From an uncultured Acidobacteriota bacterium (GTDB lineage Bacteria > Acidobacteriota > Vicinamibacteria > Vicinamibacterales > UBA2999), in contig CAWAYR010000022.1 in NCBI GenBank assembly GCA_963786365.1, forward strand, positions 453,435 through 517,434: a stretch of DNA of 64,000 bases. The letters are read 5' to 3'. The translations under genes and the position numbers were made by a program. Positions 32,504 to 47,137 of this stretch are shown here, one piece after another (within the stretch, counting starts at the first letter, position 1; each line of letters begins with the position of its first letter). Under the pieces are notes generated by a model. It searched no databases. It was given only the letters and a program-made list of their open reading frames with translations, and was not told where the DNA came from.

Positions 32504-32513
32504 CGACCGCGCC

Positions 32514-32595
32514 TCAGAAATTCTCCGGCCGCAGCATCGCGTACACGCAGGTACACGAACGCGGCCACGCTCAACAGCAACGACAGCTCGGTCAT
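32514..32595 (-). pseudogene. kdpF: K+-transporting ATPase subunit F (small peptide), one extra base near 32545
   Basis: ATG at 32595 gives 'MTELSLLLSVAAFVYL'. After a 1-nt slip the frame reads 'VYAMLRPENF*', matching the conserved KdpF C-terminus (..YL.YAL.RPE.F). Confidence 0.7.
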
Positions 32596-32689
32596 GACGG
32601 CACCTGAGCGACCTCGGTCGCACAAGGACGACGAAGGCGAACATGGCGGCGAATGCCGCCACGCCGAGGACGATCATCCCGAGCAGCAT
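32592..32689 (-). CDS. Candidate second small hydrophobic peptide between the porin and kdpF
   Basis: ATG at 32689 lies 9 nt after the porin stop, with GAGG 8 nt upstream. 'MLLGMIVLGVAAFAAMFAFVVLV' forms one TM helix. The 3' end is undefined because the frame runs on into kdpA; a TGA overlapping the kdpF ATG exists in another frame. Confidence 0.25.
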
Positions 32690-32697
32690 CGCAACCT

Positions 32698-33867
32698 CTA
32701 CCAGGCGCCGGTCTTGTTGCCGAACCACCACACCATCCCGAGGAGGGCGGTGTTCTGGTGGTCGCGCGGCTCGCCGGGGCGCGGCCCGGTGAAGAACGCC
32801 TCGTTCGACCAGTCGCGCCGGAACTCGGCCCGGACCAGGAAGCCGTCGGCGAACTTGTATCGGCCGTGGCGGTGATCTCGTGGAGCACCTGGTCGATGCC
32901 GCCGAACAGCCCCTCGTCGTCGAGCCGCTCGTAGCGCAGGCGATCGCCGCCGGCTCGACAGCTGATAGCGGGCGTAGACGCCGTGCCCTGCAGCGCCAGG
33001 GCGTCGTCGGCCTTGTTGACCTCGTTGGTCACGTAGTTGACGTCGAGGCCGAAGCTGAGCGCGGGCGTCGGCGTAGGCGACGTAGCTGTCGAACACCCGG
33101 AAGAACCCGTCCGGGCCGGTCGGCTCGCCGCCGTCGGGCTGTTCCTGGCCGAAGTAGTAGTTCGTGGTCCAGGTGACGCTGCCGACGGGCTTGATAACGG
33201 CGGTGAAGTGGTTGCTCTTGAAGTCGTTGAAGTCCTCGGTCTGCTGGATGCCGTTGGTGAGCATGTACATCAGCGTCACTTCGTCACTGACCGGCAGCGA
33301 CAGCGCAGTCCCGAGTGGTAGAAGGGCAGGAAGTTGAAGAGATAGGCGCGGGAGAAGTGGTCGTTGTCCTTGGCGTAGTTGGTCTCGTAGCCGAGGTTCG
33401 AAGCGAACTTGCCGAAGTCGGCCTGGAGGCCGCGGCCGACCGGGAAGACGTAGGTGCCGTAGGCTTGCCAGACGTGGCGATACACGTCGGGGCGAGGCTC
33501 GTTGGCCGCGCCGCCTTGCACGGTTTCCGTGGCCTGGCCGAACTGCAGGTCGACGCGGGCCCCGAAGCGACGCGCCGCGTCGACGTCGGGCGCGCTCTCG
33601 ACGACGATGGCGGCCTGCTGGATGCCGAAGACGTTGGCCCGGGTGTCGTAGGCGCGCAGCAGGTTGACCCGGTCGTACGGCCGATTCCAGTTGTATTGGT
33701 AGAAGCCCTCGAACGCGACGCCGAACTTCACCTGGTCGAGCGGTCCGCCCGACGCGGCCGGCGGTGCGGGCTGCTGAGCCGGCGGCGGCGGCTCCTGTGC
33801 GGAGGGGCTGGGCTGCGGCCAATGCCGGCAGCCCCAGGAGCAGCAGCGCGGCGGCCGAGAAACGCAC
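32698..33867 (-). pseudogene. Outer-membrane beta-barrel porin (bbp2/OmpL-like) inside the kdp cluster, at least 5 frame breaks
   Basis: Signal 'VRFSAAALLLLGLPALAAAQ', Pro-rich stretch, 'KFGVAFEGFYQYNWNRPYD', 'ADFGKFASNLGYETNYAKDNDHFSRAYLFNFLPFYHSG', and C-terminal 'YKFADGFLVRAEFRRDWSNE...LLGMVWWFGNKTGAW' ending in an aromatic residue. Confidence 0.7.
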
Positions 33868-34150
33868 CAGGTGGCGCAGCCGGTAGGCGATGGCCTGCAG
33901 CCCGGTCCTGCGCTGGGCCTCGTGCGGCAGGGTGGCAACCAGCCACGCCCGGAATCCCAGCAGCGCTTCGATGGTCTCGTCGAGTTGGGCAATCTGCTCT
34001 TCGGGCGTGCCCGTGAACTGGCGCTGGGCCAGCACGAACGTCCCGCCGTGGTCGTGCACGTGCGCGGTCATGACATCGCTCCCTGCCATCCACGATAGGG
34101 AGCCCGGCCTGAGGACCGCCTCAGAAGTACCTCAAGAGTTGCTGAAACTG

Positions 34151-34210
34151 CGGGGCTCGGGACCGGGGATCCGGGATCCGGGCGGGACAGGCGGGACTCG
34201 GGAGTCCGGG
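34151..34210 (+). repeat. G-tract array (nine GGG/GGGG runs), member of the GGGGCTCGGG element family
   Basis: 'cggggctcgggaccggggatccgggatccgggcgggacaggcgggactcgggagtccggg', in the 126-nt spacer between the kdpE stop and the porin region. Confidence 0.8.
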
Positions 34211-34215
34211 CTGGC

Positions 34216-34926
34216 TCAGTTGTCCACTGCCGCCGAGTCGGTCACGAAGCGATAGCCGACCCACGGCTCGCTGACGAGATAGATCGGCGTGGCCGGATCG
34301 GGCTCGATCTTCTTGCGCAGCTGGCCGACCAGCGTCCACAGGTGCTCGGGCTGTTCGACGGCATTGGCGCCCCAGATCGCCTTGAGGATGGCGCGGTGCG
34401 TGAGCACCCGGTCGTGGTGGCGGGCCAGCAGCGACAGCAGCTCGAACTCCTTCGGCGTGAGCCGGATCTCGAGGCCGTCGCGGATCACGCGCCGCCGGTC
34501 GTAGTCGATGGACAGGCCGCCGGCCTCGAGCACGCCGCTCTCCACCGCCTCATCGGCCGCGGTGCGGCGCAGCGCGACACGGATTCGGGCCATGAGCTCT
34601 TCCGGGCCGAACGGCTTGGTGACGTAGTCGTCGGCGCCGACGTCGAGCGCCTGCACCTTGTCGGCCTCGTTGCCGCGCGCCGAGAGCACGATGATCGGCA
34701 CCTTCGAGGTCCGCCGCACGCGACGGCAGACCTCGGTGCCTTCGATGTCGGGCAGGCCGAGGTCGAGCACGATGAGATCGGGCGGATGATCGGCGGCCAG
34801 CCGCACCGCCTCGGCGCCGGTGCCGGTGACGGTCACATCGTAGCCGCGGGCGCGCAGGAGCTGTCCGACCGAGCGCTGCAGCGCCACCTCGTCGTCGACC
34901 AGCAGGATGCGAGGCGGCGGCGTCAT
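34216..34926 (-). CDS. kdpE: OmpR-family response regulator KdpE
   Basis: 'RILLVDDEVALQRS...DLIVLDLGLPDIEG', 'PIIVLSARGNEADKVQALDVGADDYVTKPF', and wHTH 'LTPKEFELLSLLARHHDRVLTHRAILKAIWG...VGYRF'. Adjacent to the kdpD kinase part. Confidence 0.85.
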   Translation of the reverse strand: MTPPPRILLVDDEVALQRSVGQLLRARGYDVTVTGTGAEAVRLAADHPPDLIVLDLGLPDIEGTEVCRRVRRTSKVPIIVLSARGNEADKVQALDVGADDYVTKPFGPEELMARIRVALRRTAADEAVESGVLEAGGLSIDYDRRRVIRDGLEIRLTPKEFELLSLLARHHDRVLTHRAILKAIWGANAVEQPEHLWTLVGQLRKKIEPDPATPIYLVSEPWVGYRFVTDSAAVDN

Positions 34927-36431
34927 GCGCGGCTCTCGGCGCTCGGCTCGCGGCACGACGATCGTGAACACGGCGCCGCCCTCCGGATGGTTCTCGGCCC
35001 ACACCCGGCCGCCCTCGGCGTCGAGCAGCCGGCGCGCGATCCACAATCCCGAGCCGGTGCCCGACAGCGCGCGTGCGCGCGGCGTCGCCGCGATAGAAAC
35101 GGTCGAAGAGGTGAGGCACGTCGGCGGGCGCGATCCCCGGGCCGCGGTCGCGGACGCTCAAGCGCAGCTCGAGGGCGTCCGACGCGCCCTGGATGTCGAT
35201 TGCGGATCCCTCCGGCGCGTACTGCGCGGCGTTCTCCAGCAGGTGCGCCAGGGCCGTCGCGGTCAGCCGCGGATCGACACCGGCCGGGACGTCGGGATCG
35301 ACGGCGACGCGCAGCCCATGGCGCCGTACGGCCCGGCCGACCTGGTCGCGCGCCGCGGCGACGACCTCGGAGGCATGGGTGGGCCGGCGCTGCGCGGCCA
35401 GGCCGCCGGCGTCGATGCGGGCCATCTCGAGGATGTTCTCGAACAGCCGCGTCAGCCGCTCGACCTCGGCCTGAATCAGGTCGCTCTGCTCGGTGCGTTC
35501 AGTGCCGGACAGCGCCGGCTCCTGCAGGTTGGACGCGGCCACGCGGATCGCGGTGAGCGGCGTGCGCAGGTCATGGCCGAGCGACGCCAGCAGCGCCGTC
35601 TTGAGCTGCTCGCTCTGGCGGGTCAGCTCGGCGGCCTTGCGCTCGTCGAGCAGCTCTGCCCGCTCGATGGCGATCGCCACGACGCCGGCCAGGGTATCGA
35701 GCGTGCCGGCTTCCACCGGCCGGCCGGCGGCGGCCAGGACGCCGATCGGCCGCGTGCCGACGCGCAGCGGCACCAGCCGTACCGGCGTGCCGGCAACGTC
35801 GCACGATGCGGTGCCCGGCATACGTGCGCGCGTAGGCGTCGAACTCGAGCGTCGTCTGCGCCGCGGCAAACGCCGAGGCGACCTCGTTGGCGGGCAGCGC
35901 CAGGGCCCGGCCGGCGTCGTACTGTGCCCACTCCCCGTCGCGCGGCACGGCGATGGCCACGTAGTCGAGGTCGAAGCGCCGGGCCACCGAGCGGGCCAGC
36001 GTGCCGATGGCGTCGCCGCCGTCGGAGATGCCGAGCACGTCGCGGCTCAGGTCGAAGAGCCGGGCCAGCTCGTCGCGACGGCCCAGCGCCTCCGCGGTAC
36101 GAGCGCGCGTCAGCGCCGACAGGCGGCTGGCCACCAGGCTCACGGCCAGGAACGCCAGCAGCGCCAGCCAGTTCTGCGGATCGGCGATGGTCAGCGTGCC
36201 GACCGGCGGCAGGAACGCGACGTTGAAGGCCAGCACCGCCGCGATCGACGTGGCGATGGCCACCCACTGGCGCGACGTGGCGGCGACGACGACCACCACG
36301 AGCAGCAGCATCGCCGCGGCGGTGGCGGCGTTGACGGCCGGAAGCCAGCGCGCGAACACGAACGACACGGCGGCCGTGGCGCTCAGGCCGGCAGCCAGGC
36401 GCGCCGCGTCCGAGGAGCCGCGTGTCATCAC
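34923..36431 (-). pseudogene. kdpD: KdpD C-terminal part: DUF4118-type TM domain + GAF-like domain + HisKA/HATPase kinase, 2-3 frame breaks (~35810, ~35085, possibly ~34935)
   Basis: TM block 'NAATAAAMLLLVVVVVAATSRQWVAIATSIAAVLAFNVAFLPPVGTLTIADPQNW'. H-box 'ALLASLGHDLRTPLTAI'. 'LLENAAQYAPEGS', 'RDRGPGIAP', 'GSGLWIARRLLDAEGGRVW'. There is no KdpD/USP N-domain; that part is encoded at 26942..28082. Confidence 0.85.
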
Positions 36432-36507
36432 CCGCGATCATAGCCGAGCGGTGCCGACCGCCCGGACGTGCGCGGCACGACAATCGTCGACGGCGAACCG
36501 CCGGCGT

Positions 36508-37011
36508 TCAGGGCTCGCAGGGCACGCGCGTCATCGCGTACTCGATGCGCGGCGCCTGGCTGCCGGCGCCGCCGTCGATCCACGCCGTGAGCGCCTCGAC
36601 GCCGGGCATGCGGTAGCCGACGCGCTTCGGGAAGTCGTGCTGCGGGTTCGCGAAGGTGATCGCCGAAGGCGATTGATCGGCCGGCGCCGCCGTGAATTCC
36701 GTCGGCGGCGCGCCGCCGGGCTGGGCGATGTAGACGAGGCGATCGCCGCGCACGACGATCCTCAGGAACTCGAAGGCGCTCACCGTCGCGCCTGTGACGG
36801 TGTGGGCCACGCCGAGCAGCGTGTCATTGTCGGCGACCGCCCAGCGCTCGGTGAACCGCTCGGCGCCGCGGTTCCCCGACCAGCAGCCGGCGATCCACCG
36901 CGGCAACTCCGCGGCGGCCGCCGCGCGGCCCGGCGTGACGCCCGGGAACACGAGCGCGGCGATGGTCACGACGAGCACGGTCGAGCGCCGGTGGGAACGG
37001 GTCATCGTCAC
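36508..37011 (-). CDS. DUF6265-like small exported protein
   Basis: Intact 167 aa with a signal peptide, 'WIAGCWSG', 'FEFLRIVVRGDRLVYIAQPGG', 'ITFANPQHDFPKRVGY'. Confidence 0.55.
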   Translation of the reverse strand: MTMTRSHRRSTVLVVTIAALVFPGVTPGRAAAAAELPRWIAGCWSGNRGAERFTERWAVADNDTLLGVAHTVTGATVSAFEFLRIVVRGDRLVYIAQPGGAPPTEFTAAPADQSPSAITFANPQHDFPKRVGYRMPGVEALTAWIDGGAGSQAPRIEYAMTRVPCEP

Positions 37012-37078
37012 GACGTCCTCCTCTCGACCCGCAGTGTGGTCCGCCGGCGCCCGCGGCGGCTTGGAAGAATGCGACGCG

Positions 37079-37900
37079 TCAGGTGCGGCGATCGACGAAG
37101 AAGCGCGTCAGCTCGGCCAGCCGGTGGTCGACGAAGCGGCGCGGCGCATCGCCGGCGAACGCTCGGAACTCGGCGATGAAGTGGGCCTGGTCGTAGTAGC
37201 CGTGGTCGAGGGCGACGGCGGCACCGCCGTCGGCCGGGTTGGCGTCGAGGGCGGCCAGCGCCCGCCGGAATCGCACCAAGCGGGCCAGCCGCTTCGGCGT
37301 GACCCCGACCGACAGCTGGAAGTGCCGCTCGAGCCACCGCGACGACGTGCCGGTGGCCCGGGTCAGCGCGTCCATCGTCACCGCGCCGCCGGCGGTGGTG
37401 ATGTACGTCACCGCGCGCAACAGCCTCGGGTCCACGGCTGCGGTCGAGGCATAGACCCGCGGCAGTTCGCTCGTGAGCGCCGCCACGGCCGCCGCCAGCG
37501 TCGCGGCGCTGCTGACGGCGTCGGCCAGCGAGCGGAGGAGCGGCGCCGTCAGCCGGTCCACGCTCACGATGCGATCGGCGAGGCTCGCCTGCGGGAACGG
37601 ACAGAGCGGCGACAGACCCGCCGGCGTGAATCGGACACCGACCGATTCGACGCGCCGGCCGGGCGCGAGCGCGACGCCGCCGGTCATCTGGCCGACCGCC
37701 AGGCGGCGCGGTTGGACGCGTGACGACGTCGCCGACCGCCGCTCGCGGAACGGATCGCCGCGATGCACGACCAGCTCGGGCCGGCCGTCGGGCAGGATCA
37801 GATCGAAGGAGGGGTGACGGGTCTCGCCGGTGAGCGTCCACAGGCACGCCACGCAGGCGGCGACGGCCGGGGGCGGTGGATGCTCCTCGTAGCGCATCAC
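37079..37900 (-). CDS. AraC-family transcriptional regulator
   Basis: Intact 273 aa. C-terminal HTH_18 region: 'TMDALTRATGTSSRWLERHFQLSVGVTPKRLARLVRFRRA...GYYDQAHFIAEFRAFAG'. Confidence 0.8.
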   Translation of the reverse strand: MMRYEEHPPPPAVAACVACLWTLTGETRHPSFDLILPDGRPELVVHRGDPFRERRSATSSRVQPRRLAVGQMTGGVALAPGRRVESVGVRFTPAGLSPLCPFPQASLADRIVSVDRLTAPLLRSLADAVSSAATLAAAVAALTSELPRVYASTAAVDPRLLRAVTYITTAGGAVTMDALTRATGTSSRWLERHFQLSVGVTPKRLARLVRFRRALAALDANPADGGAAVALDHGYYDQAHFIAEFRAFAGDAPRRFVDHRLAELTRFFVDRRT

Positions 37901-37904
37901 CGCG

Positions 37905-38568
37905 CTACCGCTTCGACGCCTCCTGGAACGAGATGTCCAGAATCGGGTAGCTCGGCCAGTCCTTGTAGTTGAAGTGCCACCACTCGTTGGGCTCGACGGT
38001 GAAGCCGTGGCGCTCCATCACCGCGCGCAGCAGATCGCGCTTGCCGCGCTCCTCGGGCTTGCCGCCGCGGTAGTCGGGGTACGGAACGCTTGGTCGGCTC
38101 GTCGTAGTCGCCCGGCATCTGCACGGCCTGGCCGTTGGCCAGGTCGTAGAGCGTCAGGTCCACGGCGCAGCCGCGGTTGTGCTTCGAGCCCGACTTCGGG
38201 TCGGCGACGAACTCCTGCATCGGCGAGCCGGCGGTCATGTCCCAGAACAGCTTGGTGATCGTCCACGGGCGGTAGCCGTCGTGAATCAGCAGGCCGTAGC
38301 CGGCCCTGGCCAGCTCCCGGTGTGCGGCGAGCAGGGCTTCGGCGGCCGGGCGCTGCAGGAACGCGCGCGCCTCGGGGTAGACGACCTTGCCGGTGAAGTT
38401 GTTGGTCGTCGCGTAGCGGATGTCGAGCTTGATCGTCGGATCGAGGGTCACGAGCTCGACCAGATCGGCGCGTTGCGTCGCCTTGGGGTCGCGCGGCGGC
38501 CGGTCCTGGGCAACCAACGCCGCCGAGGCGAGGAGCAGGGCGACGACGAACGCGGCAGCGCGGATCAT
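37905..38568 (-). pseudogene. Exported D-Ala-D-Ala dipeptidase (VanX/DdpX-like, M15D), frame break near 38085
   Basis: Signal 'MIRAAAFVVALLLASAALVAQ', 'IKLDIRYATTNNFTG', 'LLIHDGYRPW', 'SKHNRGCAVDLTL'. The tail 'EPNEWWHFNYKDW' is recovered after the shift. Confidence 0.8.
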
Positions 38569-38588
38569 GGCGAGCGATTCTATCAGCG

Positions 38589-39761
38589 CTACCTGGGGCC
38601 CGGATCGGCCGGCGCCGGGACGAACGGCGCGTCGTCGAGCATCCGGCGGTAGGCGATGGCGCCGTTGGGGGCCTTCTCGCGCCGGAACGGGAAATACGGC
38701 GAGAAGAGTGTGTCGAGTCCGTGTCGAGTCCACCACAACGGCTCGGCCGAATCGCCAGCCAGCGAGGTGACCATCTGGCGATCCGCGGTCAGCCGCAGGC
38801 TGCGGAACTTCTGGTCGTTGAAGTCGAAGATGCCGACCAGCCCTTGCTCGAGGCGCTCGCTGTAGAGCGACGCAATGGTGTAGCCGCGGAGTTTGGCCTC
38901 GATGTCGTGCACGTAGCGGACCGTCAGTGGGGACTCCTCGGCCACCAGGGCGACGAGTTCGTCCATCTTCGTCTCATCGGCCACCCGCTGGAGTTCCTCG
39001 CGAATCCTCAGCGGGGGCGTCGGACCCTTCGGGCGCTTTTGCAGCTTCATCAGCCGGAGGCGCAGCCGGATGATGTCGTCGATGCTCAAATGATCGCCGC
39101 CCGACGGCCCAGGGGGCTCGTGGATGATCGCGACGTACTTGCCTTTGTACTGGTCGGGTAGCGTGTCGCCGATCGGAAGTTCCCAGGTGTCGACGACGCC
39201 GGTCGTATCCTCGAGAACCTCCCAGAGCGTCGTGCCGTCTCCCGCACAGCCGTCGAAGTAGGTGTGGAATTGGGCTCCGGGTGACAGCGCCGGGTTCAGG
39301 GGATCCAGCATGTAGAGGAAGCTCACCACGCCGCTCGTCCGGTCGACGCCGCGTACGGTCACCCAGTGATCCTCCTCGTTGATGCTCAGGATGGCCGGGA
39401 CGCCGCGCTGCAGCGCCCGGCCGAGGTTCTCGAACAACTCGGCCGAGCTGCCGTAGGCGCCGACCTTCCAGTGGATGAGGCCCAACTTTTGGAGTCCGGG
39501 ATCCTTCTTGAAGATCTCGACCAACTCGTCAGGATGGCTGAACCAGCCGCCGTTGTCGTTCGGATAGCTCTCGCGCTGGCGCAGTTTGTCCTGCGTCGCG
39601 GGCACGGGCCGCGCTTGCTCGGCCGGCGTTGGCGCCTTGCCGACCGGCACGCCGTGCGTCACCGAGGAGATGATCGACTGCGCGCAGGCCCGGCCGCAGT
39701 CGAACCTCGCATTGTCCGAGGCGTGGCGAAACACCGCCAGAGTGGGTTCTGTGTTCGGCAT
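38589..39761 (-). CDS. Hypothetical protein: N-terminal papain-fold / peptidase-C39-like domain + ~230-aa unrecognised C-terminal domain
   Basis: Intact 390 aa. 'ARFDCGRACAQSIIS' (candidate Cys), 'PAILSINEEDHWVTVRGVD' (candidate His), 'FLYMLDPLNP' (candidate Asp), in the order and spacing of C39-type peptidases. No TM or ABC domain. GC visibly lower than the flanks. AGGAG SD present. Confidence 0.55.
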   Translation of the reverse strand: MPNTEPTLAVFRHASDNARFDCGRACAQSIISSVTHGVPVGKAPTPAEQARPVPATQDKLRQRESYPNDNGGWFSHPDELVEIFKKDPGLQKLGLIHWKVGAYGSSAELFENLGRALQRGVPAILSINEEDHWVTVRGVDRTSGVVSFLYMLDPLNPALSPGAQFHTYFDGCAGDGTTLWEVLEDTTGVVDTWELPIGDTLPDQYKGKYVAIIHEPPGPSGGDHLSIDDIIRLRLRLMKLQKRPKGPTPPLRIREELQRVADETKMDELVALVAEESPLTVRYVHDIEAKLRGYTIASLYSERLEQGLVGIFDFNDQKFRSLRLTADRQMVTSLAGDSAEPLWWTRHGLDTLFSPYFPFRREKAPNGAIAYRRMLDDAPFVPAPADPGPR

Positions 39762-39781
39762 GGGATGGCTCCTGGGGCGTT

Positions 39782-39803
39782 GGCGCCGGCCTGAGCCGGC
39801 GCC
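39782..39803 (-). promoter_or_regulatory. Intercistronic perfect hairpin between the small GG-tailed gene and the C39-like gene
   Basis: GGCGCCGGC-ctga-GCCGGCGCC: a 9-bp GC stem with a 4-nt loop, centred in the 57-nt spacer just upstream of the AGGAG SD of 38589..39761. Confidence 0.4.
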
Positions 39804-39818
39804 ACGCCCGGACGGCGA

Positions 39819-40297
39819 TCAGAAGGCGCACACCTTGCCGCCGCCGGCGCCGCCCGGCGGACAAATCTCCTGGATTACGCGGAGAGTGTCGAGGATCACC
39901 GCGAACGTCAGCGGCCCGAGCTGTGCCTGGTAAGCCAGCTTGCCGTGATCGAACGCCCGGTCGCAGACGAAGTTTCGCGTCGTCGGTTGGGTGTCCCAGT
40001 TCAAGGTCGCCAGGTGCGTGACGACGCTCTTCAACAGCAGGTCGGTGAAGATCGCGATGTCGCTGGGGGTCGCGAAGATCTGAGCGTCGACCCTGGGCTG
40101 GGCGTCCCGCGCGCGATCGACACGCCGGCGCCGAAGTGCACCAGGACCTGCGCGACGATGCCGGCGGCTGTCTTGAGGTTGTCCATTTCGACCTTGTGGG
40201 TCGCTTTCACCGCCGCGCACGGGTCCTTCTTCTTGACCGGGCGGTGCTTCAACAACGATTCGGCGATTGGTCGCTTGCGTGGGCGTGGTTTCGCCAT
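39819..40297 (-). pseudogene. Small (~158 aa) hypothetical protein with basic N-terminus and C-terminal 'PPGGAGGGKVCAF', frame break near 40115
   Basis: ORF 40031..40297 ('MAKPRPRKRPIAESLLKHRPVKKKDP...VLVHFGAGVSI') joins ORF 39819..40220 ('..DAQIFATPSDIAIFTDLLLKSVVTHLATLNW...LRVIQEICPPGGAGGGKVCAF'). The ATG lies 1 nt after the kinase TGA, and GGAGGA sits inside the kinase 3' end. Confidence 0.5.
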
Positions 40298-40298
40298 C

Positions 40299-42946
40299 TC
40301 ATCCTCCAGTGGGTAGGCAGCGGTTCAGGCCTTGTACGAAATCTTCGGCCGACGTCGGCCGGAATGCGCGCGGGCCGAGGAACTGAGCGAAGACGCGTCC
40401 GACCGCGGGCGGCAGAGCCGCGGCGGCGGCGGCCGCGCGATGCGGCTCGGCGAGCACGCGGGCTACGGTCGAAGCCACCGTCGCGCCACGAAACGGGTTG
40501 GCGCCGGTGCAGGCCTCGAGCAGGGTCACCGACAGGCTCCACAGGTCGTCGGATGGCACCGGCGGCGTGCCGTCGAGCACCTCGGGCGACATGTAGGCCG
40601 GCGTGCCCGGGATCGCCCGGTCCGTCGGTGAGCGACGCCAGGGACCAGGTTGAGTCGTTGCCACCATCGGTCGCGGTCAGCGACGTGCCGGGCGCGGCCA
40701 CCAGCCGGGCCAGCCCGAAATCGAGCAGCTTCGGCGTGTCGTCGGCCGAGAAGCCGATGTTGCTCGGCTTGATGTCGCGGTGCAGGAGGCCGCGGCTGTG
40801 CAGCGCGGCCAGTCCGCGGCCGAGCGCGACGCCGAGCGCCAGCGTCTCGTTCACCGGCATCGGCCCGCGCCGCAGGCGCTCGGACAACGAGCCGCGCTCG
40901 AGGAACTCCATCACCAGCATCGGCGATCCGCGCCACAGCTCGAGGCTGTGCAGCGTGGCCAGGTTCGGATGTACCGCCGCGGCCATGGCCCGGGCCTCGC
41001 GCCGCAGCCGCGCCATCATCACCGGGTCGGCGCCGGGCAGCGTCTTCACGGCCCGCGGCTGCTGCAGGCGCACGTCGAAGGCGCGATAGACCACGCCCAT
41101 GCCGCCGGCGCCGATCCGGCGCTCGAAGCGGAGGCGATCGGCGAGCATCAGCGGCGTCGCGGCGCGGCGCAGCTGGCCGCCACAGGCGCACCGGCTGGTG
41201 TCAGGTGCCACCACGACCCCGCAATCGATGCACTCGCGGGCCGGCGGGTCGAGCACGCTCTGCGCCCCGTGGTGGGCGGTGTGGCGCGCCAGCGTCAGGA
41301 TGCGGTCGATCGCGAACCCGCCCGAGGCGCCCACGGCGGCCAGCAACTCGCGATCCTGTTTGGAGTACGGCAGCTCGCTCACCTTCGGACCCAGGGCGAG
41401 GGCGCCGCGCAGCTCGCTGCGGGAGCCGCGCAGCGGGACCACGATCGCCGCGCCGGTGGCGCTCAGCCACGCCCGATCGAGCTCACCGAGCCGCGCCAGG
41501 ATCGACGGCTCGGCCCCGGCCACGTCGAGCGGCGCGTCGCTGCCTTCGACCAGCTGGGCCAGCGCCGACACGCCGCGCAGCGGGGCGACGTCGGCGTCGA
41601 TCGCGTGCAGGCAGTCGTCGGATCCGGCGATCGCCGTGACCACGCTCTCGGGATGCAGCGCGCGCTCGACGGCGGTCGCGAGCGTGTCGCGCACCTCTTC
41701 GATCGACTCGGCGTGACGCACGCCCTCGGCGACGTTGAGCAGCGTCTCGCGGGCGTCGACCTCCTGACGGAAGAACCGCCGGTCGAGCGCGCCGAGCAGC
41801 CGCCGGCGGCTCACCACGCCGATCGCGCCGGCGACGGTCAACGCGCTCAAGGTGAGTCCCGTCGGTCCCGAGGCGAGCTGCGACAACGGGCGGTCGCGGT
41901 TGAGCAGGACCAGGACCGCCAATACGGCGAACGGCGCGAAGGCCACGCCGCGGATGACGGCGCGGGCCAGCACGTACTGCAGCGCCTGGCGAAGCACGAG
42001 CCGGAGATCCAGCGTCCGCTGCACCAGGCCGGCGTAGGCGGCAGCGACGGGGACGGCGGTCAGGGCGGTGACGATCAGGGCGCCACGCAGTCGGGCAAAC
42101 GGCGGCGACGCGTCGCCGAAGCGCGCCCAGAACGTCTGCAGGATGACATTGGCCACGAGCGGCAGGAATCCCGACCGTCAGGCCGAGGGCGAGCCAATAG
42201 AAGCGGCGCCGGGCGTCGGGACCGCACTCGCGCAGCTTCAGCGGCATGAGGACCAGCAGCGGCGCCATGAGAAGGAATTGCGACGTGAAATACCAGTCGC
42301 TCTGCCGCGGTGCCTCGCGCTGCAGGGCGATCACCACGCTCGGGGCGGCCGGACCCAGCCACTTCGCCGTTGCGTCGACGACGACCAGCAGCGCTCCGAG
42401 GGCGAACGCCGCCGTCGTGCCGGTGAAGAAGATCGCCGCCAGGCGGGGACGGGTCGACGAGCGCGGGAACAGGCTCGCGAAGAACCAGGCCATCGCCGCC
42501 TGGAAGGCGTCGGTGCGCAGGTGAAGCCCGAGCCAGGTGACGACGGTGGGCGCGGTGCTCGCCCGGACGAACGGCGTGAGCAGCGTGGTGCCGGAATCGA
42601 GGATGAACAGCCCCAGCGCCCAGGCCCGGCGGTCGTGCCGGCCGAAGCGCAGCAGCATCAGGGCCAGGCCGGCGAACGCCGAGGCCTGCAGCAGCTGCGC
42701 CCAGACCGGGATGATGCGGTTCGGGTTGGCCGCCCACGGCTCGGTGACGAGCGCCACGACGAAGATGGCGAACCGCACCAGGATCGGAACCGCCAGCAGC
42801 GAGAGCGGCCACGACGGGAACTCGAGCGGCGCCGGATGCGCGACGGACACCGGCCGTGACGGCGTCGCCGAAGGCCGAACCGGGGTCGAGGTCGAGGCCA
42901 TGGCCGGGCGCGCTCCGACGGTCGTTCCTCGCAGCGCCAGCAGCAT
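40299..42946 (-). pseudogene. Membrane sensor Ser/Thr protein kinase (polytopic N-domain + GAF-like region + Zn-ribbon + Hanks kinase), frame breaks ~42165 and ~40640
   Basis: About 8 hydrophobic helices in ORFs 41483..43162 and 40249..42156. 'CIDCGVVVAPDTSRCACG'. Kinase motifs 'IGAGGMGVVYRA', 'AVK', 'LLHRDIKPSNIGF', 'LLDFGLA', and 'GTPAYMSPE' (in ORF 40299..40667). Confidence 0.8.
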
Positions 42947-43043
42947 ATCCAATTGGACGGCGGGAATCGCGGCCGGCGCCGCGCCGCCGCCAGAATCTAG
43001 GAGATCCCCAGAATCAGCCCAGAAGCCGCCGGTTCGCCGCGGA

Positions 43044-43694
43044 TCAGAGGGTGATCGTGGTGGGGCTGTCGCGGCTGTCGACGACGAACTGCGCACGCAC
43101 GCTGCCGAAGACCAACTCGTCGCCGTCGTGGAGGACGGTCCGGGCCGACAGGCGGTCGCCACGCAGGGTCGTGCCGTTCTTGCTGTCGAGGTCTTCGACC
43201 GTCGCCGCGCTGCCGTCGACCGCGATCCTGGCGTGCACGCGCGAGACGCTGGCGTCGTTCAGGCAGACGTCGCACTCGGCGTCGCGGCCGACCGAGTTGA
43301 CGCCCGGGCCGAGCACGATGGTGCGGCTGCCGATCCGCAGCAGCGCCAGCGGTCCGTCGGCCGATACCAGATCGCCGCTGGAGCGCGTCTCGCGGACGTC
43401 GGATACGAAGCTGTAGCCGACGCCGTGATGCGTCTTGATCGAGCTGGCGGCCGCCCCGACGTCGCCGAGAGCCCCGCGCACCTCGCCGATGAGCACCGGC
43501 AGGTTGGCTTCGACGACGAACGCGTCGGGCCACAGTTGGCTCATCAGCTGGGCCTTGGTGAGCACGCTGGGACGCGCGTCGATCAGCAGCCGGAGCAGCT
43601 CGAAGGACTTCGGCGACAGGTGCACCGCCTCCCCGTCGCGCACGAGCTCGCGGCTCGCGGTGTCAAGACGGCAGCGCCCGAAGGCGTAGCGCAT
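43044..43694 (-). CDS. Winged-helix (OmpR/EmbR-type DNA-binding) + FHA-domain regulator
   Basis: 'MRYAFGRCRLDTASRELVRDGEAVHLSPKSFELLRLLI...QLWPDAFV...HHGVGYSF', then FHA 'VGRDAECDVCLNDASVSRVHARI..VEDLDSKNGTTLRG...LHDGDELVFG'. An alternative upstream start is at 43760. Confidence 0.8.
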   Translation of the reverse strand: MRYAFGRCRLDTASRELVRDGEAVHLSPKSFELLRLLIDARPSVLTKAQLMSQLWPDAFVVEANLPVLIGEVRGALGDVGAAASSIKTHHGVGYSFVSDVRETRSSGDLVSADGPLALLRIGSRTIVLGPGVNSVGRDAECDVCLNDASVSRVHARIAVDGSAATVEDLDSKNGTTLRGDRLSARTVLHDGDELVFGSVRAQFVVDSRDSPTTITL

Positions 43695-43795
43695 GAGCCG
43701 CGATTCTACAAGAGAAACCCTGGCAAAATCCTGGAACTGCCCGACGACGGGCCGGGCCACGTCTCGGGCTGGCCAGCCAGCGCCGTGCGCCGGCG

Positions 43796-46134
43796 CTACA
43801 AGCGGAAGAAGCGGGTGACCTTGACCACGAACGCGCGGTTCTTGAGGCCGGGATAGCCGCGGCTGGTCGTATCGCGCTCATCGGTGTAGACGACGAAGAA
43901 CTCGCTGCCGAGCTTGTACTCCCACCGGTAGCGGACGTTGGTGCTGAAGCTGCGGTCGATCGAGCTGTATTGCACCAGCGCGCTGGCGAACATCCGCGGC
44001 GAGAACGCGTAGTCGGTCCGGGTGCGCAGCAGCGTGGTCGTGAAGTTGCCCGCGGGGAGCTCGACGCGGGTGTATTGCACGGTCGGCTCGAACGAGAACT
44101 GCTTCAACACCGAGACGCGGGCCGCGGTGTAGCTCAGCGACCGGATGGTGCCGTCCCAGAACTCGCCGACTTGCGCACTGATGGCGCCGGCGACGCGGCG
44201 CTGCGCGCCCAGGCTGTAGGTCAACTGGATGTCATCGAACCAGTAGCTGCCGGTCGGGATGATCACCCCGGGGGCGACCTGGAACGGCTGCAGGAGCAGC
44301 TCGTAGTCGCGCGTCACGTCGACGTTGAAGGCGTCGCTGTTCTCGAGCTCGACGTTGAACTTCCCGACCCCGACCCGTGTCTCGAGCGCCCCGGCGCCGT
44401 TGGTCAGGTGCTCGAAGTCGGCCTGCCACGTCAGCTTGCGCACGCCCTTCAGGTTCTTCGGCCGCGGGCTGAACCGCAGCGACGCGAACCCGCGCCGGAA
44501 GTCGTCGCGCTGGAGGAACCCGACCTCGGGGCTGAAATCGTCACCGACGTCGAGGTACTCGAAGCGCGCGCCGTAGCGGTCGGCGAAGTAGTCGAACCGG
44601 CCCTGGAAGCTGTCGTCGTCGCCGTCGAGCCCGTCGGTGTGGGTGCGCGCCCAGTAGCCGCCGATGGTCAGGTTCTCGTAGAAGCCGAGCGCCGCGTCGA
44701 CGCCGTAGGCCTGGTTCGACCCGGCCGAGACGTTGGATTCCGAGCGCCCGGTGAACATCGCGCCGATGGTGCTCTTCTTCAAGATGTCGCGCTTCACCCG
44801 CATCACGGTGAAGTTGGTCGACGGCGTCAGCGTCGCCGGCTCGTCGTCGGCCTGGATGTTCAGCACGCCGATGCCGAACTTGCCGACCTTGCCGGTGACG
44901 CGCCCGCCCACCTGGATCGGCACCTCGCGGCCGCGGTTCAACCCGATGCGGCGGCTGTAGAACAGGAACGGCGTCGCCGAGGGCGCGTTCAACGCCGCTG
45001 CCCAGGCCGCCGCCGCCGCCCCCGCCGGCGCCGGTGGCGCCGCCACGCGCGAAGTCGAAGATGCCGCGGCCCTCGAGGAAGAAGTCGCGCTTCTCGGGGA
45101 AGAACAGGTTGAAGCGCGTCAGGTTGACCTGCTGCTCGTCGACTTCCACCTGCGCGAAGTCGGTGTTGTAGGTGAAGTCGGCGACCAGGTTGGCGGTGAT
45201 GCCGTACTTCACGTCGAGACCGAGCTCGCCGTCGAGGTCGTTCGTTACCGGCGGGATCCGCACCTCATCGGTGGACGATCGGCCCAGCGCATACGGCTTG
45301 ATCTCGAAGGTGCGGCCCGCCGCCGGGACGTCGATGCCGGTGGCGCTGCCATAGAGCGAGACGCGGTTGAGGCCCAGTGGTCCGCCCATCGACGCCGGCA
45401 GTGCGGTGAGGTACGACCACTCGTTCTTGCGCCGGACCGAGCGGCGGACCTGGAAGCCCCAGGTCTGGTTGGCGCCGCCGTCGAAGCGCAGCGACTTGAA
45501 CGGGATGATCATCTCCATCGTCCAGCCGCCTTCGAAGCGGCCGGTGCGGACGTTCCACACCGGATTCCAGTCGCTGTTGGGCTGGCCCTCGTCGATGATC
45601 GAGTAGTCGGAGAACGCGCCGAGCGGGCTGGCGTAGAACATGAACCCGCTGCGCCGGTCGTAGAAGGTGTCGAACCCGACGCCGATGTGGTCGTTCTGCC
45701 TGAGCGGCGCGCTGTCGCGGCGGTACTCGTTGGCGATCCACTCGTCGGGCGGCGCCGAATCGTAGACCCGGGCGCCGACGTAGATGTTCCGGTCGTCGAA
45801 CATCAGCCACAGGTCGGTGCGCTCGGAGGCGGGCTGCCCGGTGGCCGGCACGGTCTGGATCAGGCCGCCGAACGGCGGGTTCTCGGTGTAGACCGCTTCG
45901 TCGAGCGAACCGTCGACGTCGAGCGGCGCCGACAGCCGGATCGCGCGCACGGTCGCCTGGCCGCTGTCGTCGCGCGAGATGGTGGCCGGCGCCACCGGCG
46001 CCGGCGGCCCGTCGATCTCGGCGATGCCGGCTGGTCGTCGGGCTGCCGCTGGTCGATTCCTGCGCCGCGGCCCGCGAGACGCCGCCGTCGCAGAGCACGG
46101 CCAGCGCGATCGCGGCGCGACCGGGAATCAGCAT
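43796..46134 (-). pseudogene. DUF5916 / CBM9-like outer-membrane protein (copy 2), frame breaks ~46020 and ~45010
   Basis: Signal 'MLIPGRAAIALAVLC..', 'LDVDGSLDEAVY', 'DFAQVEVDEQQVNLTRFNLFFPEKRDFFLE', C-terminus 'VVKVTRFFRL'. It shares blocks with 7573..9895. Confidence 0.75.
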
Positions 46135-46197
46135 GGGAAAGACGAGCTTAGCGAACGAGCGGCGCGTCCCACGTCACCAGATGTCACCGCGAACGAT

Positions 46198-46326
46198 CGG
46201 GGCTCGGGGCTCGGGATCCGGGCCTGGCGGGAGATGCACGGCGCGTCGTTGCGCCTTGGTGACGCGTGACGCGTGCGACACGCGTTACAAGTGCCCGGTC
46301 CCGGGCCCCGAGACCCCGAGCCCCGA
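46198..46326. repeat. Inverted pair of GGGGCTCGGGG G-tract elements flanking a structured core with three ACGCGT palindromes
   Basis: 'cggggctcggggctcgggatccgggcc' (46198-46224) pairs with 'ggtcccgggccccgagaccccgagccccg' (46298-46326), giving about 18 bp plus a bulge. The core contains 'gtgacgcgtgacgcgtgcgacacgcgt'. Confidence 0.75.
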
Positions 46327-46332
46327 CACGTG

Positions 46333-47137
46333 TCAGAAGTGCCAGCCGCCCAGGTCGGTGGGAAACAGGAACTCGAGCACGTTGCCGGCGCGATCGGCCC
46401 ACGCCGCTTCGCTGTGGGTGGCGCCGGCCGGCTCGGTGTAGCGGAGGTCGTGATGATCCCGCCACCCGGCGGCGACCAGCGCCTCGCGCAGCCGACGCGC
46501 GTCGGCGACCGCGATCCGGCCCTCGCCGCCGCCGACGTCGAGCCAGACGCGGGTGTCGGGCCTGGGCCGCGCTTTGGCCACGTAGCGCAGAATCGCGCGC
46601 CGTCCCCACCACACCGACGGCGACAGCACCGCGAGCTTCCCGAACACGTCGGCATGCCGTAGCCCGAGGAACAGCGCCGACAGCCCGCCGAGCGACGATC
46701 CGCCGAGCCCGGTGTGCTGGCGATCGCCCAGGGTCCGGTAGCGGGCGTCGACGAACGGCTTCAGCTCTTCGGTGAGCAGGCGTCCGTAGGCCTTGCCCAG
46801 TCCGCCGCCCAGCCGCGGATCCCGGGTCGGCGTGTACTCCTCGACGCGGCCGATGCCGGTATGGTTGACGCCGACGATGATCAGGGGCTGCACGCGGCCC
46901 TCGGCGATCAGCATGTCGGCCATCTCGCCCAGACGCCAATATTGTCCGCGCACGTACGAGGTGCTCGGGATCGAACAGGTTCTGGCCGTCGTGCATGTAG
47001 AGCACCGGATAGCGGCGGTGCCGATCGTCGTCGTAGCCAGGGGGCAGATAGACGACGAGGTCGCGGGCCCGGTCGAGGAACCGGGACTGGAAGCCCGAGT
47101 GGCGTTCGAGGCGCGGCGCGGACACGGAGACGGACAT
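46333..47137 (-). pseudogene. Esterase-family alpha/beta hydrolase (PF00756-like), frame break near 46975
   Basis: 'VVYLPPGYDDDRHRRYPVLYMHDGQNLFDP' (ORF 46184..47242) joins 'LIIVGVNHTG...RQHTGLGGSSLGGLSALFLG..LSPSVWW' (tail of ORF 46333..47925). GxSxGG nucleophile elbow present. Confidence 0.75.

Follow-up and report, generated by a model that had tools for sequence, protein, structure and literature searches.

A four-gene kinase and cysteine peptidase cassette with a putative glycine-tailed peptidase substrate in uncultured soil Acidobacteriota

The four-gene locus and its relatives

This analysis concerns four co-directional genes on the minus strand (38589-43760) of a 64-kb stretch of DNA, 70% GC, which belongs to the sequence context of uncultured soil Acidobacteriota (Vicinamibacterales and relatives) and which, in its entirety, we call the window. 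The genes encode a transcription regulator that combines a winged helix-turn-helix (wHTH) with an FHA domain, a Ser/Thr kinase of the Hanks type, a small protein with a glycine-rich tail, and a 390-aa cysteine peptidase. The elements that an initial annotation of this DNA had singled out, namely, the four co-directional genes, the 1-nt gap between the kinase and the small gene with its GGAGGA, a GC-rich hairpin, and peptidase motifs in the order Cys-His-Asp, are all present in the window. The features discussed below are the following (all on the minus strand).

43703..43736, minus: putative promoter/operator of the regulator gene (direct repeats and a -10-like box)
43044..43694, minus: wHTH-FHA regulator gene, 216 aa (matches to Trans_reg_C and FHA)
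42994..43024, minus: putative operator/promoter of the kinase unit (three repeats with an 11-bp period and a -10-like box)
40299..42946 (or 42901 by homology), minus: Hanks Ser/Thr kinase gene (Pkinase matches on two open reading frame (ORF) fragments, weak GAF_2 match)
39819..40297, minus: small partner gene, 159 aa once one deleted G is restored
39822..39863, minus: signature tail of the small protein, CPPGGAGGGKVCAF, with GGG at 39837-39845
39775..39812, minus: GC-rich stem-loop in the spacer that follows the small gene (folding energy compared with shuffles)
38589..39761, minus: cysteine peptidase gene, 390 aa, intact
39696-39698, 39366-39368 and 39303-39305, minus: peptidase catalytic residues Cys22, His132 and Asp153, respectively

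Comparison with related sequences shows that these four genes make up a signalling cassette conserved among uncultured soil Acidobacteriota, in which the kinase, the small gene, and the peptidase are contiguous. Nineteen non-redundant cassette loci were compiled (the window, L001, L002, L005, L006, L007, L010, L011, L013, L015-L021, L075, L102, and L103). In 19 of 19, the tail-bearing small gene is located directly upstream of the peptidase gene, and in all 18 loci with enough sequence, the kinase gene lies directly upstream of the small gene. The gaps between the latter two genes are mostly between -50 and +11 nt, and they are usually translationally coupled; in the window, the ATG of the small gene (40297) follows 1 nt past the kinase TGA, and GGAGGA lies within the last kinase codons. 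The regulator gene accompanies the unit in 13 loci, preceding the kinase (5') in 8 and following the peptidase (3') in 5 (in L015, it overlaps the peptidase stop), and is not within the available flanks of L007-9, L075, and L102. That the position of the regulator is permuted while its linkage is kept is strong evidence of functional coupling.

The surroundings of the cassette differ among the distant relatives (among them L005, L006, L010, L015-18, L020, L102, and L103), where the flanking genes include those for a GMC oxidoreductase, VWA proteins, inositol-phosphate synthase, and mobile elements; among close relatives, the context on the chromosome is stable. The suggestion in the initial annotation that the module is self-contained is thus borne out, the genes being syntenic with changing flanks and the kinase, small gene, and peptidase contiguous in the 19 loci. 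Beside the cassette, no ABC transporter and no modification enzyme for ribosomally synthesized and post-translationally modified peptides (RiPPs) is conserved in any of the 19 loci, nor are E1/ThiF/MoeB, E2, JAB, or PafA/Dop-like genes conserved in or near it at any locus. Mobile or addiction elements adjoin the cassette in two cases, an IS110 transposase in L009 (21-1463) and an integrase fragment together with a HigB/Gp49-like gene with a helix-turn-helix (HTH) in L102 (3466-6881), and these neighborhoods hint that the cassette might occasionally move horizontally.

The peptidase and its small partner

The 390-aa protein carries the motifs FDCGRACAQSI, DHWVTVRG, and MLDPLNP and comprises an N-terminal clan-CA domain (approximately residues 1-215), a basic, Pro-rich linker, and a C-terminal alpha+beta domain (approximately 245-390). 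The protein is rare. A word-indexed search recovered 23 unnamed relatives, from metagenome-assembled genomes (MAGs) of Vicinamibacterales and other Acidobacteriota and from soil metagenomes, and an exhaustive profile search of 1.84 billion cluster representatives returned 174 at E <= 1e-3. Among species-representative genomes, there were 8 hits, each of them to a MAG. The 22 sequences of the close family, which reach down to 32% identity, share Cys22, His132, and Asp153 without exception, along with many positions in both halves of the protein. The triad persists across the superfamily of 103 full-length members: Cys22 is present in 99 of 99, His132 in 103 of 103, and Asp or Asn153 in 101 of 103, with Gln at the oxyanion position, about 6 residues ahead of the Cys, in 79 of 103. 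The original description of the protein as C39-like, of papain fold, with a Cys-His-Asp triad, is supported, and the triad is conserved among homologues.

The model of the peptidase produced by AlphaFold2 (mean predicted local distance difference test (pLDDT) score of 78.8, predicted template modeling (pTM) score of 0.81) shows Cys22 at the start of a helix (22-36) and His132 and Asp153 on adjacent strands. The Cys, His, and Asp/Asn follow one another in the order typical of clan CA, and structure comparison recognises a papain-like fold. The top matches of the model in a Foldseek search of the PDB were UfSP (5ejj, probability 1.0) and UfSP2 (3oqc, 0.98), with the UfSP-type structure 2z84 also among the best, followed by IdeS and by plant and animal papains; the probabilities ranged from 0.5 to 1.0. 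At the sequence level, the connections are more tenuous. Weak, sub-threshold matches to PF13529 (Peptidase_C39_2) were obtained for 9 of the 22 close relatives (best E-value of 2e-4), and two distant relatives, P0124 (28.0 bits) and P0152 (25.8 bits), pass the 24-bit cutoff of this family over the whole profile. Because only distant relatives pass the gathering threshold, membership in C39_2 is transitive and applies to the superfamily, for which "C39-like" is a fair label, although strict Pfam membership does not extend to the window protein. One family member matches PF07910 (C78) with an E-value of 0.058, and weak profile matches to solved structures, centered on the Q-D..C-G-x-A-C motif, include Alr0975 (E = 0.06) and LahT150 (E = 1.2).

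The C-terminal half consists of helices (227-275) and a subsequent beta-meander with conserved SPYFPF and R..D motifs. It has no credible neighbor in sequence or structure searches, Foldseek returning only hotdog-fold proteins of low probability (<0.1); profile matches of this domain to a DNA polymerase thumb and to SpoVT were treated as noise. Several residues outside the triad, His13, Asp16, Trp73, Pro77, Trp133, His166, Asp170, and Cys172, are nearly invariant across the superfamily (residues 13-16 at window positions 39714-39725, residues 166-172 at 39222-39266). The H...D-x-C motif falls in the only loop that was modelled poorly (residues 156-175, pLDDT <50). One can speculate that the extra conserved residues make up a metal site or a second functional site. 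Taken together, these features identify the 390-aa protein as a predicted cytoplasmic two-domain cysteine peptidase of clan CA that represents a new family.

The product of the small gene belongs to a family of 59 members collected by iterated searching, 58 of which are complete at the C-terminus. Neither the single sequence nor an alignment of 53 members, both run against NCBIfam and Pfam, yielded a match (the single sequence was also negative in PADLOC), and a Foldseek search with the structural model returned nothing below E = 1, only generic helical bundles. This model, obtained with AlphaFold2 for P0024, the closest intact orthologue (91% identity), is a compact four-helix bundle with a pLDDT of 89.8 (helices 28-66, 78-94, 105-125, and 132-145), preceded by a disordered polybasic segment and followed by a 14-residue tail. 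The net charge of the first 30 residues is +9 in P0024 and mostly +4 to +14 across the family. According to the model, then, the small protein is a folded four-helix protein, not a precursor of the leader-peptide type. Like the peptidase, it contains no signal peptide and no transmembrane (TM) segment, and both are predicted to be cytoplasmic.

The defining feature of the family is the tail. The motif C-x4-8-G-G-[GA]-x-[VIAF]-C-x1-10-end occurs in all 58 C-terminally complete members, in each case no more than 13 residues from the C-terminus, and is seen in L015-L018, L075, and L103 as well, which makes the Gly-rich, Cys-containing tail to which the initial annotation had drawn attention the most conserved part of these proteins. 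The Gly motif is positioned 6-16 residues from the C-terminus of folded proteins of 140-210 aa; the stretch after GGG totals 4-13 residues and is variable, the commonest residues after the second Cys being DF. Residues of the body are conserved within the clade of the window. The partners of distant peptidase clades are homologous across the whole bundle, with hhalign probabilities of 92% and 96%, and a tail of the form C-x4-9-G-[G/A]-[G/A]-x-Φ-(C) is kept even where the rest of the protein has diverged beyond recognition by BLAST. In L102, the partner of a clade-7 peptidase, C-x8-GGG is kept near the C-terminus, without the second Cys. The clade-7 partners also lack the histidines of HFGAG and HG, and we therefore rejected a fixed 2His/2Cys metal site as a universal feature of the small protein. 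As the sole universally conserved feature, the tail is the functional core of the family, and its GGG is a putative recognition or cleavage site for the peptidase.

Kinase, regulator, control elements, and surroundings

The regulator consists of an OmpR/PhoB-type winged helix (Trans_reg_C, E = 3.4e-16) and an FHA domain (E = 2.2e-19) and matches the L002 orthologue over its full length at 81%. No BTAD domain was detected in it, so that its wHTH-FHA architecture is shorter than that of EmbR-like regulators. The window kinase is recovered as a three-frame tblastn match to the 864-aa kinase of L002 (intact orthologues have 860-880 aa), with Pkinase matches of 7.7e-25 and 5.4e-09 on its two ORF fragments and a weak match to GAF_2. 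By hydropathy and sequence, an intact orthologue contains about 7-9 predicted TM helices within residues 30-340, then a GAF-like region, a CxxC..CxC ribbon, and the C-terminal kinase domain; the catalytic motifs of Hanks kinases, AVKTL (with the VAIK lysine), HRDIKPSN, and DFGLA, are all present. The kinase domain matches the PADLOC models for the PD-T4-6 and MADS kinases, which are generic kinase-domain matches, and in PADLOC and NCBIfam, the cassette yields only such generic kinase, FHA, and wHTH matches. A Gly-Gly pair at the kinase C-terminus was considered as a second substrate and rejected, given that it appears only where the embedded Shine-Dalgarno sequence, GGAGG(A/T) or GGGGGA, overlaps the last codons.

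Translation of the kinase starts at ATG 42946 or, on homology, at ATG 42901, and the 15 codons between them are either coding or regulatory. A palindromic block, TCCAATTGGATATG (42944-42960), overlaps the upstream candidate start and is conserved at the DNA level in 5 of 6 aligned loci.

The DNA upstream of both the regulator and the kinase gene contains direct repeats. Ahead of the regulator, the 7-bp repeats TTCCAGG (43730-43736) and TGCCAGG (43719-43725) are separated by 4 bp and followed by a -10-like TAGAAT (43703-43708) that ends 8 nt ahead of the ATG. Such proximity of the -10-like box to the start codon suggests that the regulator mRNA may be leaderless or nearly so. Ahead of the kinase, TTCTGGG (43018-43024), TTCTGGG (43007-43013), and TCCTAGA (42996-43002) recur with an 11-bp period, the third repeat overlapping a -10-like TAGATT (42994-42999); this block contains a perfect match to TTCYRGG-N4-TTCYRGG. 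The regulator block is kept in L001, L002, L010, and L013, and the kinase block in L001, L002, L005, L006, L011, and L013, on the coding strand only. The alignment consensus for the two regions consists of TTCYRGG direct repeats with 4-bp spacers and an 11-bp period, then a -10-like TAGAWT. In a scan of the 64-kb window with TTCYRGG-N4-TTCYRGG, at a looseness at which about 2.4 chance matches are expected, 3 of the 4 best matches fall in the two upstream regions of the cassette. Seven related loci carry the motif on the coding strand almost exclusively at the corresponding positions. Upstream of the kinase in the permuted loci L015, L016, and L018 are related TCTGGGATT repeats, and L007 contains a single related copy. 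A scan for promoter and terminator consensus sequences gave nothing useful in this 70% GC sequence. The geometry of the repeats is that of the pho box, from which we infer that the winged-helix regulator autoregulates the cassette, with the TTCYRGG repeats as the putative operator of both the regulator and the kinase unit.

A further candidate control element lies in the spacer of 57 nt that separates the small gene from the peptidase gene, where a perfect 9-bp GC core stem (39782-39790 / 39795-39803) is embedded in a longer hairpin with a minimum free energy of -38.2 kcal/mol (z = -4.24 against shuffles). No T-tract follows the hairpin. Hairpins of differing sequence fill the same spacer in L001, L002, L005, L006, L010, L011, L013, and L017 and are missing where the small and peptidase genes abut. 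This pattern is consistent with attenuated read-through that would yield more of the small protein than of the enzyme.

Any ORF-based reading of this window requires frame correction. Alignment with the intact L002 proteins (tblastn) places two apparent frameshifts in the kinase gene, near 42167-42171 and 40606-40613; the small gene has one, a 1-nt deletion at about 40084/40085. The need to correct a frameshift before analyzing the small and the 390-aa product, raised in the initial annotation, was real for the former, and it extends to the kinase and the adjacent M15 dipeptidase gene, but the 390-aa gene is intact. The public annotation of the source genome includes the small gene only as a truncated 88-aa product (P0033). 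About 10 frame switches occur in 17 kb, in the esterase, DUF5916, kinase (two), small, M15, KdpD-like sensor kinase (two), BBP2 porin, and KdpA genes. Across 30790-47137, at least 8 unrelated genes are frameshifted, at about one site per 1.7 kb, as is typical of unpolished long-read assemblies (examples are 31703-31710, 35045-35064, 35791-35799, 38077-38081, 45045-44980, and 46967-46968), and several related loci derive from long-read "MFD" (Microflora Danica) MAGs. Given that unrelated neighbor genes are hit at an equal density, we attribute the frame switches to indel errors in the assembly rather than to decay of the module; pseudogenisation was rejected on this ground, and the cassette genes are treated as functional.

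The lower GC content of this region, which the initial annotation had noted, turned out to be compositional. The GC content of the small and peptidase genes is 0.662, within the lowest 5% of 1-kb windows, but GC at third codon positions is normal (0.87), and in every relative these genes differ from the kinase gene in this way; we therefore rejected recent horizontal transfer as the explanation of the low GC. Similarly, the signal-peptide-bearing, VanX-like M15 D-Ala-D-Ala dipeptidase (37908-38568, minus strand), which begins 20 nt past the stop of the 390-aa gene and had been listed with the cassette, lies outside the module, because it is present only in close relatives that are collinear across the whole region. 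Beyond it lie genes for an AraC-family regulator (DUF6597+HTH_18) and a DUF6265 protein, whose conservation is likewise limited to close relatives, and a complete kdp potassium-uptake locus (30790-36400, minus strand; kdpF/A/C and further genes, a BBP2 porin, a KdpE-like response regulator, and a KdpD-like histidine kinase) that is collinear with L002. The window also holds two DUF5916 (CBM9-associated) paralogues of about 36% identity, at 43796-46016 and 7579-9775; among the window and L001-L005, where this was checked, one DUF5916 gene is directly upstream of the cassette.

Proposed function and comparison with known systems

C39 and C78 peptidases are known to cleave behind small Gly residues, and the substrate of UfSP loses a short extension at its C-terminus. 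Against this background, we tentatively propose, with somewhat less than even confidence, that the small protein is trimmed at its C-terminal GGG by the peptidase, in the cytoplasm and under the control of the kinase and the FHA regulator. The peptidase would be the dedicated processing enzyme of the small protein and would cut within or just after the Gly triplet, removing the last 4-13 residues, in a reaction resembling that of UfSP on pro-Ufm1 or of C39 enzymes after Gly-Gly. Such trimming might switch the state of the helical protein, whose polybasic N-terminal segment suggests binding to membranes or nucleic acids. The kinase would sense a membrane or envelope cue, autophosphorylate, and then recruit or activate the regulator through binding of phosphothreonine by the FHA domain; the regulator would bind the pho-box-like TTCYRGG repeats before its own gene and the kinase operon, resulting in positive autoregulation, and the GC hairpin after the small gene would keep the substrate in excess over the enzyme. 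What speaks for trimming is the combination of linkage between tail and peptidase across the 19 loci, the tail in 58 of 58 members, and the co-divergence of the two proteins, with partner homology detectable by hhalign between distant clades (92% and 96%). Also in its favour are the conserved catalytic residues of the peptidase, its resemblance to C39_2 and UfSP, the hairpin that recurs with different sequences, the lack of signal peptides and TM segments in both proteins, and the conserved repeats, nearly unique to the two upstream regions. We favour the trimmed protein, not a released peptide, as the functional product.

Several observations weigh against this proposal. In 13 of 58 members, Pro follows GGG, which makes a cut at the bond directly behind the third Gly less likely, and the supposedly discarded piece contains an invariant Cys, which would be odd for a mere pro-peptide. 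The peptidase clade to which the window protein belongs has Ser at the oxyanion column (19 of 103 superfamily members), along with a one-residue insertion; the window peptidase itself has no Pfam match at E <= 0.1; and the Foldseek matches have weak E-values (5e-3 to 0.1) and low TM-scores, the latter because only the N-terminal domain aligns. No phospho-acceptor site was identified. Cleavage is deduced from linkage, co-divergence, and motif conservation, and binding of the regulator to the repeats from architecture alone.

Moreover, the largest related peptidase clade, clade 11, with at least 217 loci in metagenomes of the Joint Genome Institute, is stand-alone. These proteins of about 400-425 aa from soil and sediment (L022-L101) share the motif YHQQD..CGxAxAQM...SPxxPF...RIDG. 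Among the 63 loci with upstream sequence in the scan for this clade, a kinase and small gene lie upstream of the peptidase in only one (L075, recovered by the scan, its clade not verified), and the other 62 have no kinase, small partner, or FHA gene. Clustering of ORFs from 80 metagenome loci revealed no conserved neighbor of clade 11; the recurrent clusters that did appear were alternative-frame ORFs of the peptidase gene itself and were discarded. Enzymes of this type are thus not intrinsically dependent on the small partner.

Some of these same observations lend substance to an alternative that we regard as possible, if less probable, namely, that the small protein is a partner of the peptidase without being its substrate: a pseudo-substrate inhibitor, an adaptor, or a redox or metal subunit, whose Cys...GGG...Cys loop gates the enzyme while the actual target is elsewhere (the kinase, the regulator, or an unlinked protein). 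The confident four-helix fold, with a body conserved within clades, and the two Cys that flank the Gly loop in nearly all members fit such a role, as do the Pro after GGG in 22% of the members, the clade-11 peptidases that operate without this partner, and the further invariant peptidase residues His13, His166, Asp170, and Cys172, which map partly to a loop of low model confidence and are compatible with a metal or regulatory site. There is also a precedent in staphostatins, co-encoded inhibitors that bind staphopains in the orientation of a substrate, with Gly at P1. However, the bundle His are lost in the clade-7 partners and the second Cys in L102, so that a 2His/2Cys metal site is not universal; the tail motif is always at the extreme C-terminus, as in precursors trimmed by proteases; and a hairpin that favours an excess of the upstream product suits a substrate as well as an inhibitor.

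The initial annotation envisaged a long-leader precursor of the NHLP/Nif11 or double-glycine type, from which the peptidase would release a RiPP- or pheromone-like Cys peptide, here put at 4-6 residues (xΦCxF), perhaps sensed by the kinase; the logic would resemble that of Agr. In its favour, GG(G) is followed by a short Cys-containing C-terminal piece, mostly ending in CDF; a C39-like peptidase adjoins the small gene; the set of genes, including a polytopic sensor kinase and a DNA-binding regulator, parallels agrBDCA; and the "precursor" gene has a hairpin behind it, a feature of many lanA-type operons. Yet, the small protein matches no NHLP/Nif11, bacteriocin-leader, or other precursor model in NCBIfam or Pfam, and the would-be leader is a folded bundle of 130 residues (pLDDT 90). 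Signal peptide, ABC/PCAT exporter, and modification enzyme are absent in the 19 loci, with flanks that vary; both proteins are predicted to be cytoplasmic; and the piece to be released has no fixed length (4 to 13 residues) and, in L102, no Cys. With a variable tail, a folded body, and neither exporter nor modification enzyme, a secreted RiPP or pheromone is unlikely. The outcomes that the initial annotation had named as counting against a peptidase with a Gly-tailed partner, loss of the Cys or His in homologues or a match to a characterised non-peptidase family, a tail that is not conserved, and lack of synteny, were all examined, and none was found.

A more daring variant of processing at GGG, which we rate as slightly less probable still, is that the clan-CA enzyme forms a Gly-acyl thioester on GGG that the upstream Cys resolves to a C-terminal thiolactone macrocycle, that is, Agr-like chemistry on a folded protein, or that is transferred to another nucleophile, with Ser/Thr phosphorylation as the gate and the FHA regulator as the readout. 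If true, this would amount to a bacterial protein-modification pathway without an E1 or E2 and with no described homologue.

Less probable than any of these is a conjugation or sulfur-carrier system akin to ubiquitin (Ub) or Pup, in which trimming would expose a C-terminal Gly-Gly for activation and transfer. The C-terminal GG(G) with a short removable extension does recall the precursors of Ub, SUMO, and Ufm1, as well as QbsE (GG-CF), and the nearest structural neighbors of the peptidase are UfSP1/2, but the small protein is a four-helix bundle, not a beta-grasp, and no E1/ThiF/MoeB, E2, JAB, or PafA/Dop-like gene accompanies the cassette. Of the second option raised in the initial annotation, that clipping exposes a C-terminal GG, what survives is therefore C-terminal trimming of a cytoplasmic protein, which, like a non-substrate partnership, fits better than the leader model, and not conjugation, for which the machinery is missing. 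As improbable are readings of the module as a cluster of pseudogenes in decay or as an island for anti-phage defence or toxin immunity, suggested by the frameshifts in the cassette genes or neighbors of the window, the PD-T4-6 and MADS kinase matches, and the IS110 next to the cassette in L009 and integrase and HigB-like gene near that in L102, given that frameshifts are equally dense in the kdpA, sensor kinase, and esterase neighbors, that orthologues in other MAGs are intact, that the PADLOC matches are generic, with none for the peptidase, small protein, or regulator, and that the chromosomal context is stable among close relatives.

Few soil bacteria are as abundant as the Acidobacteriota or as hard to work with, and their signalling is almost uncharacterised. 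The cassette, which is confined to uncultured soil members of this phylum and whose chemistry and role are at this stage deduced, appears to couple eukaryote-like Ser/Thr phosphorylation, via an FHA transcription factor, to a dedicated peptidase and a substrate that this enzyme apparently has to itself. If the peptidase indeed trims the Gly-tailed protein, this would be a bacterial analogue of the processing of ubiquitin-like (Ubl) precursors or pro-proteins, wired to a kinase pathway. The analysis defines two new protein families and a candidate operator motif; we found no annotation or family model for the cassette or for these families, and no publication on them in the literature searched on combinations of C39-like, FHA, and kinase.

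The relationship to described systems is one of partial resemblance throughout. With Peptidase_C39_2 (PF13529) and the C39 domains of ComA, PCAT1, and LahT150, the peptidase superfamily shares the papain-like clan-CA fold, the Q-x5-C-G-x-A-C signature, the H-[WFY]-V-V His motif, the D-P third residue, and a presumed Gly-Gly specificity. The window protein differs in scoring below every Pfam threshold, in having an extra conserved domain of about 150 aa and an extra invariant H...D-x-C, and, with the rest of its clade, in carrying Ser where the oxyanion Gln is expected. No ABC transporter is fused to it or encoded beside it, and the Gly motif ends a folded protein instead of an N-terminal amphipathic leader, so that neither the exporter fusion or adjacency nor the N-terminal double-glycine leader that characterize PCAT/C39 bacteriocin processing is found here. 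Likewise, the homologous leader and the co-located modification enzyme (cyclodehydratase, radical SAM enzyme, LanM, and others) of NHLP/Nif11 precursors are both lacking.

UfSP1 and UfSP2 (C78), the best structural matches, resemble the enzyme proposed here: they are cytoplasmic cysteine proteases with a small dedicated partner protein, from whose C-terminus they cleave a very short extension after a Gly. In contrast to the Ufm1 system, the partner here is a four-helix bundle instead of a beta-grasp Ubl, no E1, E2, or E3 is encoded, sequence similarity is negligible, and the catalytic order is the papain-like C-H-D; the same discrepancy in fold (bundle pLDDT 90) and in ligase or E1 genes separates the cassette from Ub, Ufm1, Pup, and ThiS-type systems in general. 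The staphopain-staphostatin pairs offer a papain-fold protease co-transcribed with a small cytoplasmic binding protein that has a conserved Gly at P1, but staphostatins are beta-barrels encoded downstream of a secreted protease, whereas the cassette pairs a helical partner, encoded upstream, with a protease that, like it, is predicted to stay in the cytoplasm.

On the signalling side, there is a parallel with the PknH-EmbR pairs, in which a membrane Ser/Thr kinase is genetically coupled to a regulator with an OmpR/PhoB winged helix and an FHA domain; the cassette differs from these in the lack of BTAD, in the inverted layout of the kinase (N-terminal membrane sensor, C-terminal kinase domain) with GAF-like and Zn-ribbon inserts, and in the obligatory link to a peptidase and its partner. 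The overall logic is reminiscent of Agr (AgrB-AgrD-AgrC-AgrA): four genes, with a cysteine endopeptidase, a small Cys-containing precursor processed on the C-terminal side, a polytopic sensor kinase, and a regulator acting on direct repeats in its own promoters. However, homology between the components was not detected with the tools used, the peptidase of the cassette is soluble, the kinase is of the Hanks and not the histidine type, the small protein is a folded 150-aa protein, and nothing points to export or a thiolactone. Overall, the cassette is built from components of known kinds (a Hanks kinase paired with an FHA regulator, and a clan-CA peptidase whose partner bears a Gly tail); their combination and the fold of the partner are new.

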